This document shows, piece by piece, positions 5,917 to 64,000 of a stretch of 64,000 nucleotides of DNA. The stretch comes from Octopus vulgaris (taxonomy: Eukaryota). The notes beneath the pieces were generated by a model, which saw only the letters and a list, made by a program, of their open reading frames with translations, made no database searches and was not told where the DNA came from. Positions within the stretch are counted from its first letter, which is position 1. Every line of letters begins with the position of its first letter. The translations under genes were made by a program, and so were the position numbers. The stretch is from contig OX597832.1 of NCBI GenBank assembly GCA_951406725.2, forward strand, positions 44,268,001 to 44,332,000, written 5' to 3'.

Positions 5917-5961
5917 CATTTTCTGATGAAACTACAGGAGTAGTTGAAAGCGCTAATATAT
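5917..5961 (+). ncRNA. Minimal type-I hammerhead ribozyme motif
   Basis: CTGATGA (5923-5929), a 6-bp stem II AACTAC/GTAGTT with AGGA loop, GAAA (5946-5949), palindromic GCGC and a CUA triplet. Stem I is weak. Confidence 0.65.
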
Positions 5962-8025
5962 AGAAATAATATGTTGATATGTAAATAAATATATATTTTT
6001 TTACAACCATCCAGCATTCTGAACACCTTTTGTCTTTCATATATATATACACGCATACACACGCACGCCCATGTGTGTGTGTACACATACATGCGAGCCT
6101 GTCTTATTTGCATCTCTAATATAAATAAACAATATACCTTTATTTGTTACAGATAAATAAATAAGTAATATAAACCACTCGAAAAAACATCAAAGACGTT
6201 TGATGTTTTCTTCTCTCTCTCCCTCTCTAAGTTTGCACGAAAGTTGCAGCTATTTGTTATGGTACAACTTAGTTTAGCGAGTCGAAACAACTTACACACA
6301 CACACACACATTCTCTTTTCTCTCTCTCTTTCATCAGTAAAACTCCAGCCTCATCAATTGATAGTCACAGTAGTAACTGTGCTTACTACAAGCTTTACTC
6401 ATTAGTATGTACGATGTTAACGATCTTAGTGGTCAGGGAGGAAAGTCACAATACTTAGGGAAGAAAAAAAAAAACTGCCTGAATGTGATTCAAGGTTTCT
6501 TTTCCTGCTGCAACTTCTATCGACTGCGAAATAGATTTTAATAACAAACAATAAATAAAAATTTCTACTAATTATATTTGACCAAACTTAACGTGTTTAT
6601 ACATATATATGCTTTTGTTTTTAATAGACTAATATATTATATTTACAACTGTATAAAAAAAAAAACGAGGAAAACATTTCTTTCGTAAAACATTTAGCTC
6701 TAACACAAGTACGGGCCATAAAAACATCTGCGATTTTGTGTAGTCGTTATACTAACAGACAATTACAAATAAAATAATAGGTTAAAAATCGTTATTATAG
6801 TTAAACAACGTGGACAATATCCTAATCGTTTTGTTACTCGTGACTAGTTGCTGTTTGGAGTCAGATTTAAGTTTATGTATCAAGAATGGCTCGAGTCGAA
6901 TAATAACAAAATACTTATCGAAGTACTTTTTCCAGCAAGGGATATATATGTATATATTTATATATTTATATCCGTCTGAATTAATACGTATATTGATCGT
7001 AAAGTGTTTATTGCATAATGAAATGTATTTTTTAAATCAATATATGGGATACTTACATCTAGTTTATACATATATTACATTAAACTCTTCCGTGGTGCAT
7101 TTACAGTCGACTAAAGTAGTTGAAAGTCCAGCCAAATTCTTCTTACAAGTAAATAAAAAAGAGATACGCGAAGTTAACGTTTCGTAAACAATGCACGATA
7201 TATATATATATTTTAGTTGTGGCCTGTTATTATAATATACAATAAAATATATTTTACTGAACTCATGAACAAATATACAAGATGAGATATTAAACTAGCG
7301 GGCTGGTGTATGTGTTTATAAATGCGAGTGTGTGTGTATAGATGCTAGCGTTCAGTGCTATGGGTGTATAAATGGTGGTGGAGTACAGGTCCAAGCAACC
7401 ACGCCCGAATTACTTTTTTTTCCTCTTTTGTGAACTGCAGATAATTCTCTCTACCTTGCACAAAATTTATCAGAAATATAGATACTTATAAAAACCCAAA
7501 CATCAATGTAGAGTGGCGAAATTAAAGAACATTACGTTTTTATTATAATTTTATCATTCATAACAATTAAACCACCCACAACAGAAAACATTAGAAAAAT
7601 GTTTAGCATGAAATTAAAAACTAGAATTAATGCATTTTTTGTTAATTTTAGATTGAAAATAAAAAGACATTTGGGAAGTAAATATATAAATTATATTGTT
7701 TTTGGTGGATGCTTATTCAAGTAGGCGTGAGTTTTGGCACCAAATCTTAAACCAAGAAGTACAAAGAATCTTTTTACGAAGTCGAAGTGGGTTTGGTCTT
7801 TTCTGATTTTCTGTGAAGATAATTATATACTTTCGAAACTAAATGGTAATTATAAATTTGACTAAGAAATCTTAAAATGATCTCAGAAAACTTATTCGAG
7901 ATATCGAATTATGCAAAATAATTGCTGAAAAAAATTCTCCCATTTTATCTTCAATGCAATCTGGTTATCTTAAAATCTGTGGTCAAACATTGACTGGCTT
8001 CATTGACCTCACCAAAGGCTTAGAG

Positions 8026-8995
8026 CAGTTGTTCTCTCAACTGGGGTCAATATAAAGTTCAGGGGGTCCACGCAAGCAAAACAGTAACTTGTGGATCCAC
8101 AGTAGTATTTTAAGAGTCCATGAATAAGTTTTACTTTAGATGTATTTATTGCAAAAAAACATGTTCTCTCAATGGGTGAAAATAAAACAGGAATATCGAA
8201 AGAATTATCTATAAAACTAATTTTTAAACACTAAATAGCTATGGGGCCCACTAGAACAAAATATTAATCAAAGGGGTCCATAGATAAAAAAAACCCCAAA
8301 AATTTGGTTGTGAACCTCTGATCTAGGGCATTGCTTCTCGGCCGGAGTCCACATAGCCCTTGGGGCTCCGTATAAGATTTTGTTCTTAAAATTTATGTGC
8401 AATAAATTCCTTATATTTGTACAATTCATAAAATATTAAATTTGTTAAATAGGCGCAGGAGTGGCTGTGTGGTAAGTAGCTTGCTTACCAACCACATGGT
8501 TCCGGGTTCAGTCCCACTGCGTGGCACCTTGGGCAAGTGTCTTCTACTATAGACCCCCGGCCGACCAAAGCCTTGTGAGTGGATTTGGTAGACGGAAACT
8601 GAAAGAAGCCTGTCGTATGTATGTATGTATATGTGTGTGTGTGTGTGTGTATATGTTTGTGTGTCTGTGTTTGTTCCCCTAGCATTTCTTGACAACCGAT
8701 GCTGGTATGTTTACGTCCCCGTAACATAGCGGTTCGACAAAAGAGACCAATAGAATAAGTACTGGGCTTACAAAGAATAAGTCCCGGGGTCGATTTGCTC
8801 GACTAAAGGCGGTGCTCCAGCATGGCCGCAATCAAATGACTGAAACAAGTAAAAGAGTCGTTAATAATATTTCGTTATAAGTGTATAAGAGGAACTAATT
8901 TTTAAACATCGAATGACTAAAGAGATCCATGGAAGTAAAATAAAAACCAAAAGGGTCCACAGACAAAAAAAAAAGAAATGGTTGAGAATCCCTAT
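8026..8995. mobile_element. Two adjacent decayed hAT(Charlie)-like MITE copies, the second interrupted by SINE-A
   Basis: The termini resemble CAGTGGTTCTCAAC...GTTGAGAACCACTG next to CTAG. The internal segment AACTAATTTTTAAACA...GGGTCCA(T/C)AGA is repeated at about 8214-8285 and 8893-8963. Confidence 0.5.
8451..8858 (+). mobile_element. SINE-A full-length copy (dominant family)
   Basis: It has a tRNA-like head with A box TGGCTGTGTGG and B box GGTTCAGTCCC, a CCTTGGGCAAGT motif, an internal (TA)n/(TG)n microsatellite and an AAGTAAAAGAG tail. Confidence 0.9.
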
Positions 8996-61620: not shown

Positions 61621-63240
61621 TCATTATCATCATCATCATCATCATCATCATCACCACCACCACCACCACCACCACCACCACCACCACCACCACCACCATC
61701 ATCATCATCATCATCATCATCATCATCATCATCATCATCATCATCATCATCATCATCAACACCATCATCATTATCGTCATCATCATCATCATCATCATCA
61801 TCATCGTCATCATCATCATCATCACCATCATCATCATCATCATCGTCATCCCCATCATCATCATCATCATCCCCATCATCATCATCATCATTATCAACAC
61901 CATCATCATCATCATTATCGTCATCATCATCATCATCATCATCATCATCATCACCATCACCATCATCATAGTAGTTGTCATCGTCATCGTTGTCATTGCA
62001 GTTGTCTTTGTGGTTACCATCACCATGGTTGTCATCATCAGCATCGTCATCATTGATGTAATTATCATTGTCGTTATCATCATCATCATCATCATCAGCA
62101 GCAGCAGCCTAATTATCAATGTGAACATTGTCATCATTCTCATTATCAATAATCACCTTTATTCTTATTAATTAATCACCTCAGTGAATAACTACTACTG
62201 CTACAACAACTACTACTACTACTATTACCACCACAATCACTGCCACTAACACTGCCACCAACACCACTACTACCACCACCACTACTACTACCACAACCAC
62301 TAACACCACCACCGCCAATACCACTACCATCACTATTGTTGTTACTGCTGCAACTACTACTAGCACCACCACCACCACCACCACCACCACCACTACTACT
62401 ACTACTACTACCACCACCACCACCACCACCACCACCACTACCACCATTGTGACCATGCAACTTCCACTACTACTACTACCTTCACCACCACCATCACCAA
62501 AACCACCACCACCACTACTACTACTACTACTAGTACTACTACTACCACCACCACCACTACCACCATTGTGACCATGCAACTTCCACTACTACTACTACCT
62601 TCACCACCACCATCACCAAAACCACCACCACCACTACTACTACTACTACTAGTACTACTACTACCACCACCACCACTACCACCATTGTGACCATGCAACT
62701 TCCACTACTACTACTACCTTCACCACCACCATCACCAAAACCACCACCACCACCACCACCACTACTACTACTACTACTACTACTACTAGTAGTAGTAGTA
62801 CTAGTACTACCACCACCACCACTACCACCATTGTGACCATGCAACTTCCACTACTACTACTACCTTCACCACCACCATCACCAAAACCACCACCACCACT
62901 ACTACTACTACTACTACTACTAGTACTAGTACTACCACCACCACCATTACCATCATGGTGACCATGTAACTTCCACTACTACTACCTTCACCACCACCAC
63001 CACCACCACCACCATCAAACACTACCATCACCATTGTGACCATGTAACTTCCACTACTTTCACCACCACCACCATCACCAAAACCACCACTATCACCACC
63101 ACCACCATCACCAAAACCACCACTATCACCACCAAAACCACCACCACCACCACAACCACCACCACCATCACTGCCACCATGCCAACACTATTGCTATTAC
63201 TACTACTACTACTGTGGCTGCTGCTGCTGCTGCTGCTGCT
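61621..63240 (+). repeat. (CAT)n, (CAC)n, (CTA)n triplet repeats with a higher-order unit of about 119-146 bp at 62440-63060
   Basis: The anchor CCATTGTGACCATGCAACTTCCACTAC recurs about six times. Confidence 0.92.
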
Positions 63241-63819
63241 ACTGCTTATGATTTAGTAAGGAGCATAGAACACTGGAACTAGTCAACATCAAACATAACA
63301 AGCAAAGACCAAAACTAATATACCAACAACATCAACAACAACAACATCAACAACAGAATTTCATAAAACGGCAATAGCTATGACAACAATAACCAGAGCA
63401 GGAAATTCCAGAGACCTCTTCTGCATGGAAGACAAATAGCTATGTCAGTGAAGACATGCTTAATGTGGTGAACAATAATATTTCAGTCAAATTCAAATTA
63501 GATTCATCGTTAAGAGAAGAAGAAAAAGAAACCCATTAGCATAATTATATTGTGCAGCAATGTATGGTATATTTTTATAAAAGGGTCAGTTTTTACTTTT
63601 ATGCAATGAAAAAAACAGCCCCTGGTTTTATCTTCAATTTATCAAACTCAGAATTAATGGACCTGCCATTCTCTTTAATAGTCCATTAAATCATCATCAT
63701 CATCATCATCATATATATATATATATATATATATATATACACACATATATATATATATACACACACACACACACACACACACACACACACACACACACAC
63801 ATATATATATATATATATA

Positions 63820-64000
63820 GTTAATCCAAACAAGAAAGCACAAAAAAACACAACAACGCGAGGACGTGGAACAAATATAGTATTATTGGACGCTCAGGAA
63901 AGAAGGGAAGAAGGATTTAACGTTTCGAGCGGAGCTCTTCGTCGGAAACATAGGAGAAGGAAAGATCCAAAGAAAGGAAGAACAGAGGAAAAAAAATCGC
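63820..64000 (-). mobile_element. Penelope-like terminal fragment with variant hammerhead at 63915-63949
   Basis: It follows (TA)n. The minus strand reads GTTT-CCGACGA-A-GAGC-TCC-GCTC-GAAA-C-GTT-AAAT and it shares GCGCTCAGGAA-like sequence with the 10372 family. Confidence 0.6.

Follow-up and report, generated by a model that had tools for sequence, protein, structure and literature searches.

Minimal hammerhead motifs of (TA)n-resident repeats in the genome of Octopus vulgaris and their putative relation to Penelope-like elements

We analysed hammerhead-shaped motifs in a 64,000-nt stretch of the Octopus vulgaris genome (OX597832.1:44,268,001-44,332,000; in the following, the window) and searched the whole assembly of this species (2.8 Gb, 227 contigs) for their relatives. 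These motifs very probably are minimal type-I hammerheads located near the 3' ends of repeats that reside in (TA)n tracts. One repeat family (family A) is, by its sequence, the pseudo-long terminal repeat (pseudo-LTR) of a young 4.5-kb Penelope-like element (PLE) of the Neptune type, and for the remaining families insertion by similar machinery, consisting of reverse transcriptase (RT) and GIY-YIG endonuclease (EN), is likely.

Minimal type-I hammerheads in the pseudo-LTRs of metazoan PLEs were described by Cervera and de la Pena 2014 (PMC4209133), and the abundance of PLE hammerheads, their extra nucleotide and the (TA)n preference have been published as well (PMC4209133, PMC8557442); in the supplement of PMC8557442, Hydra and Naiad families of octopus are listed as preferring (TA)n. 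A preliminary description of the window proposed many TA-inserting hammerhead families akin to PLEs and retrozymes. It is partly supported, being right in kind (family A carries RT and GIY-YIG, and families G and I are partial tandems without an open reading frame (ORF)) and overstated in its novelty and in the consequences for host RNA. What is new here are the core variants A6U and U4C fixed in lineages A and B, which that description missed; the arrangement of a hammerhead within a PLE is known.

Results

Hammerhead motifs in the window

The window has a GC content of 38% and is rich in microsatellites throughout. All ten sites listed initially were correctly placed, each coinciding with an end of stem I in a motif of hammerhead shape, and genome searches identified all of them as members of dispersed hammerhead-bearing repeat families. 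They fall into eight families, of which A and B are related; hence the claim of at least seven families with unrelated stems held (seven unrelated scaffolds among the ten sites). An eleventh motif, absent from the first list, represents a ninth family (E). A match to a PLE protein was not found in the window.

5917-5960, plus strand: family D motif (CUGAUGA, 6-bp stem II, GCGC stem III, UA; stem I interrupted); element at ~5917-6046, between (TA)n tracts
10461-10498, minus strand: family A motif (core CUGUCGA plus extra A; A6U); 5'-truncated pseudo-LTR at ~10349-10561, (TA)n on both sides
13528-13590, plus strand: family E motif (CUGAGGA, 9-bp stem II; stem I damaged); element reaches ~13742
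20391-20406, minus strand: 3' half of a family H motif (GAAA-stem III-UA-stem I); element at ~20182-20408, with an inverted stretch of the element's tail (~20409-20470) in place of the 5' hammerhead half
25817-25899, plus strand: family F motif (CUGAAGA, long stem II loop, stem III CCGAUUGG; stem I damaged)
25736-25799: inverted piece of family F
40368-40429, plus strand: family I motif, the sole one in the window that is fully canonical in core and all stems; element at ~40350-40681, inverted 5' piece at 40278-40368
40899-40936, minus strand: family A motif (CUGUCGA, A6U); 5'-truncated copy at ~40808-41292, the 3' end of a putative Neptune-type element, terminating in (TA)13
47959-48016, plus strand: family G motif (CUGAUGA; stem III damaged in this copy, UCAUAUGA in relatives); element at ~47761-48256, (TA)n at its end
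58719-58756, minus strand: family A motif (CUGUCGA, A6U); short copy at ~58608-58782, adjoining the TA-rich tract that ends the family C element
58904-58994, minus strand: family C motif (core from 58990, CUGAACA; 8-bp stem II; CACGUG stem III); element at ~58865-59168
63915-63949, minus strand: family B motif (core CCGACGA plus extra A; U4C); copy of ~240 nt extending beyond the window end and terminating in (TA)9

The CUGANGA order that had been ascribed to all ten sites was found at four of them (5923, 25821, 40374, 47963). The other six comprise three CUGUCGA cores, one CCGACGA, one CUGAACA and one site (20387) without the 5' half; in a strict test of core and all stems, only the motif at 40374 had the full canonical type-I order. 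Intact relatives of the family H half motif possess a CUGAAGA core and a stem II region of ~100 nt. The window copy of family C has a G8C core, and eight of ten intact family C copies have CUGAAGA.

A strict descriptor (at most one core mismatch, stems I and II each 4 bp or longer) found six motifs in the window compared to a mean of 0.07 (maximum 1) in 60 local dinucleotide shuffles, and a looser one found nine (shuffled mean 1.9, maximum 6). Ten of the eleven motifs have a (TA)5+ tract within 300 nt downstream (the remaining one at 368 nt), whereas this applies to 26% of random window positions (binomial p ~1e-5). The motifs could in principle be chance matches in AT-rich, repeat-rich DNA, their link to TA reflecting how common (TA)n is. 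Indeed, 44% of random window positions have (TA)5+ within 300 nt on either side, and an Rfam scan of the window gave 207 matches, of which the 150 listed include no hammerhead family and are TA-hairpin microRNA artefacts. However, this explanation is refuted by the shuffles, by the thousands of exact genome matches of the scaffold shared by families A and B (see below) that face none in reversed controls, and by the occurrence of motifs in both pseudo-LTRs of intact elements; furthermore, unrelated stems pair in nine families. We give it practically no credence.

The initially estimated density of one motif per 6 kb is valid locally. In 40 fixed 10-kb stretches of the genome (400 kb), 15 strict motifs were found (mean of eight shuffles 1.75), i.e., about one per 30 kb, so that the window is ~2.5 times richer (6 per 64 kb vs 15 per 400 kb). 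This density corresponds to ~90,000 motifs genome-wide, with a wide error, or ~10 times the 9,000 reported for Xenopus tropicalis (PMC4209133), note that the descriptors differ.

Insertion of the families into (TA)n

For each of the nine families 345-2,240 first-look candidates were found in the genome; 40 were scored per family, and copy anatomy was derived from 20-30 loci per family. All families have the insertion signature of Penelope-type elements: a fixed 3' end, 5' truncation, inverted 5' pieces, an optional tail and a (TA)n target. Depending on the family, 13/20 to 29/30 copies have a sharp 3' end followed by TA, while the 5' ends are variable and frequently carry an inverted 5' piece. 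Some copies continue past the usual end, with tails in families C, D, F and H and read-through in A, G and I (neither was seen in B and E). At the junctions of read-through copies, the element shares 2-7 nt of TA with the tract in all seven families having such copies. In family B, TA was also present on the 5' side of 12/20 copies (6.6% in the null), which suggests insertion into pre-existing tracts. These 3' ends, 5' truncations, inversions and tails agree with the PLE features in PMC8557442 and PMC11167929; partial tandems and (TA)n targets are likewise common to the PLEs of PMC8557442 and the families studied here.

All stems, GAAA and UH are intact in 5/20 to 19/30 copies per family. Among these intact copies, families C-I mostly have canonical cores, whereas family A has CUGUCGA (19/19) and family B CCGACGA (9/11). 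From the hammerhead core CUGANGA...GAAA...UH, lineage A deviates at position 6 and most family B copies at position 4.

Extension of the flanks, from which RT and GIY-YIG ORFs had been expected, led to such frames for family A and to no ORF for families B, C, D, E, F and H. Upstream walks from copies of H, E, C and B reached no ORF: upstream of C, E and H there is more than 1 kb of shared AT-rich non-coding sequence, in which neither an ORF nor a junction was reached, and B, D and F are known from short copies. Where PLE frames were found in the vicinity of families D, F, G and I and of a single B copy, they turned out to be separate neighbouring insertions or to lie on the opposite strand.

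Several features of individual families can be mentioned here. The 5' ends of family B cluster ~85-100 nt upstream of the core, giving insertions of ~240 nt that resemble short interspersed elements (no long copy among 67). Those of family D (L106-L125) cluster directly upstream of the hammerhead core, within a few bases, and frequently take the form of head-to-head inversions; this may reflect a stop of reverse transcription at the fold, or query bias. Different families can share one TA-rich tract (window 58608-59168; loci L065, L071, L091, L119, L125); an insertion thus apparently provides targets for subsequent ones. Neighbouring elements (L211, L057, L202, L253, L261, L347), whose proteins are similar to the Hydra rows of the alignment in PMC8557442, have a hammerhead with canonical core followed by (TA)n; its palindromic stem III of 6 nt and its long loops of stem II are as in families C, E and H. 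This common architecture is a lead, not a link.

Family A as a putative Neptune-type element

Upstream, longer copies of family A contain GIY-YIG and RT frames. When a single RT fragment was used as a protein query, 122 matches from 16,797 candidates were obtained, the non-self ones at 91-93% identity, with open frames of up to ~1,200 codons. In all 16 loci picked for long frames, RT (YIDD) and C-terminal GIY-YIG share one open frame, and 11 of these loci possess two pseudo-LTRs ~4.5 kb apart that are 96.1-99.8% identical and each bear a hammerhead. Judging from this identity and from the open frames, family A appears to be a young lineage that probably remains active.

In partial copies, Pfam recognized RVT_1 (E 6e-6) and GIY-YIG (E 4e-4), both below the curated cut-offs; the best homologues of the family A protein carry PF00078 and some of them PF01541. 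The protein of locus L242 contains DKG, YIDD, a C-x4-C-x2-C linker and CxxC..H..H, in agreement with the Neptune rows of the alignment in PMC8557442. The EN-containing PLEs of the Neptune clade (Craig et al. 2021, PMC8557442) are characterized by C-terminal GIY-YIG with CCHH, a Cys linker (CX2-5CxxC before GIY-YIG) and DKG, all of which are present in family A. Having a C-terminal EN and CCHH, the element is neither Naiad nor Hydra. The putative assignment to the Neptune clade is based on these motifs.

A further motif of hammerhead shape with a CCGG stem III (judged by eye) lies 3' of a second Neptune-like GIY-YIG frame (L209:4870-5240). Its core is apparently of the U3-A8 covariant form known from PLEs of Schistosoma.

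Core variants A6U and U4C

Families A and B share their scaffold and flanks. Among exact genome matches of the shared scaffold, U at position 6 was found 18,967 times, C at position 4 occurred 9,310 times and the canonical core 5,112 times, compared to 0 for the reversed patterns. Descriptors based on CUGANGA thus overlook the commonest motifs of the A/B lineage (28,277 variant vs 5,112 canonical matches). All 27 motifs in the 16 young long-frame loci have the core CUGUUGA.

A tree was calculated for 57 copies with the 7-nt core removed (at most nine rows per core type, pattern-selected loci, six rare core types with seven rows excluded). Two canonical CUGAUGA copies are basal to lineage A, and all 29 U6 rows lie beyond them (support 96/71, not starred), with A6 as the ancestral and U6 as the derived state. 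Along the U6 ladder (~0.68 changes per column, summed by hand), position 7 reads C, G, A, C, U. When the eight core letters were left free, 16,712 matches were obtained, and the first 100 of them, counted by eye, retained C3 in 99 cases, U4 in 97, G5 in 97, U6 in 96, G8 in 96, A9 in 100 and the extra A in 98, whereas position 7 was U in 42, A in 26, C in 20 and G in 12. With GAAA-CG-UH left free, the departures were scattered and mostly of CpG type. In contigs from four sequencing runs of four organisms, position 7 varied as well, while position 6 had no other letter at the 10% listing threshold. Note that T-rich flanks may inflate the distances, that the rows were pattern-selected and that each free-position test fixes the other half of the motif.

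These data bear on the possibility that the A6U (and U4C) hammerheads are dead relics hitchhiking in successful master elements, the motif being functionless in these lineages. Changes of A6 strongly reduce Mg2+ cleavage (A6C: PMC3088659, PMC7151607), catalytic mutants of the hammerhead do not affect insertion of an anole PLE in vitro (PMC11167929), and Naiad PLEs thrive without canonical hammerheads (PMC8557442). Furthermore, the persistence of U6 by itself is not significant, as a single site would remain unchanged over the path with a chance of ~0.57. However, no alternative master state has arisen at the other core, stem II and stem III sites over the ~0.68 changes per backbone column since U6, and for ~21 sites to remain unchanged over this path the chance is ~1e-5 (with the gamma shape of the tree). 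The high retention in the core-free matches and the scattered departures in GAAA-CG-UH also speak against loss of function. What counts is that a return to A6 never spread, while position 7 changed at least four times. We consider dead relics unlikely.

It is possible, and we propose it tentatively, that a young amplified PLE lineage runs on an A6U hammerhead under purifying selection, that its sister independently fixed U4C, and that the motif is selected as an attenuated, protein-licensed ribozyme or as an RT-bound fold rather than as a fast self-cleaver. The A6U change is predicted to weaken self-cutting, and the fold and the other core bases of lineage A were kept while A6 became U; fast cleavage is therefore probably not under selection. 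Selection for slow or protein-assisted cleavage, or for a protein-binding fold, appears more likely.

For family B, decay of CUGACGA to CCGACGA at CpG alone was rejected, since eight of nine CCG rows group apart on flank sequence. As to covariation of the stems, a single C-G/G-C swap in stem I, inherited, was found between lineages A and B.

Natural variants are known for the same core positions. A6C lowers the activity in Mg2+ and less so in Mn2+, and a viroid with U4C has low in vitro activity yet is infectious (PMC3088659, PMC7151607). In contrast to these rare isolates, A6U in the octopus has at least 18,967 copies and also occurs within intact elements of young age. The core variant named in PMC4209133 is U3-A8, different from the lineage-fixed A6U and U4C. 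In the open literature we found no report of a natural A6U core, although the figures or supplements of PMC4209133 could hold one, and none of octopus hammerheads, in a search that missed most subscription literature. The words "hammerhead" and "ribozyme" are absent from the text of PMC13282606, and six motif strings, searched on one strand, had no match in the supplement text of PMC8557442.

Families G and I

Families G and I look like animal retrozymes. Within 3-kb loci, the repeat period is 497-517 nt in family I (30 copies; unit ~510 nt) and 483-493 nt in family G (20 copies; unit ~490 nt; in locus L172, repeats at +434 and +485). Both consist of ORF-less head-to-tail units with one type-I hammerhead, arranged as partial tandems; the longest ATG frame is 31-76 aa in six natural units, and circular folding of all six was better than of shuffles (z -2.0 to -6.2). 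Animal non-LTR retrozymes are likewise ORF-less, AT-rich, self-paired and head-to-tail (PMC7229834; bioRxiv 10.64898/2026.07.22.740005). However, units of 170-400 nt were reported for them (PMC7229834), and retrozyme arrays have two whole hammerheads, whereas monomers and partial tandems were seen for G and I.

Discussion

The insertion signature suggests how these repeats may have spread. The endonuclease would nick a (TA)n tract. In the RNA, a UA patch of 2-7 nt that follows the hammerhead at a distance of some tens to some hundreds of nt would likely pair with the nicked end, and reverse transcription would begin at this point. 5' truncation of the copies would also belong to this mechanism, and ORF-less families could be mobilised in trans. 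Priming downstream of the hammerhead would leave the motif in nearly every copy, however short, and could explain its density.

Some observations weigh against this interpretation. Since families B, C, D, E, F and H have no traced ORF, their dependence on PLEs is one that we infer. The folding energies of six window motif monomers did not clearly surpass those of shuffles (z -0.3 to -2.0). The covariation in A and B is one swap inherited by many copies, and stem II was fixed by the selection pattern. Cleavage, transcript ends and circles are predictions from DNA sequence.

If the ribozyme acts at all, it would do so as a dimer between the two pseudo-LTRs of a tandem transcript, or together with the protein of the element. 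A single minimal PLE motif had no detectable cleavage and dimers cleaved weakly (PMC4209133); the hammerhead of the anole PLE cleaved only with protein, and G8C abolished its cleavage (PMC11167929). In view of such weak or protein-dependent cleavage (see also PMC3088659, PMC7151607), solo copies as in the window are most likely inert, and the hammerhead of lineage A is likely attenuated, protein-assisted or structural. Alternatively, all families could be fully active ribozymes, whose intronic solo copies cut host pre-mRNA or yield small circular RNAs, as the preliminary description had considered. The motif at 40374 is canonical, as are the consensus cores of intact copies in families C-I, and animal retrozymes, which G and I resemble, produce abundant circular RNAs (PMC7229834). 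Nevertheless, stem III is palindromic and of 1-4 bp, 10 of the 11 copies in the window are damaged, deviate in the core or lack one half, and, besides the weak cleavage of PLE motifs mentioned above, no RNA-seq reads ending at the cleavage site were found for the anole PLE (PMC11167929). Full activity of all families is thus quite improbable, and cutting of host pre-mRNA by the window copies is unlikely; neither it nor circle formation from these solo copies is supported by the present data.

The role of the hammerhead in PLEs is called unclear in PMC8557442. Lineage A combines many near-identical intact copies, a retained fold, a swapped conserved core base and a canonical ancestor in the same genome, and is thus a natural experiment for telling selection on catalysis from selection on shape. 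If our tentative proposal of purifying selection on an A6U hammerhead is true, an intact element with a natural series from ancestral A6 to derived U6 makes this role directly testable.

Other features of the window

Several further repeats are present in the window. A frame at 17680-18111 resembles what we take to be a remnant of a mariner-type transposase, and another at 42730-43314 presumably is the 3' remnant of a long interspersed element. One repeat family with tandem units of 176-185 bp (two to four copies each) is located at 2289-2651, 12285-12641 and 35813-36518. A 23-bp minisatellite of ~28 copies occupies 18283-18916, and a 255-bp duplication lies at 41527-42037. At 15216-15411, a near-perfect inverted repeat surrounds (TA)30, with two copies of an abundant ~240-nt repeat facing one tract; it is the origin of the spurious top microRNA matches in Rfam.

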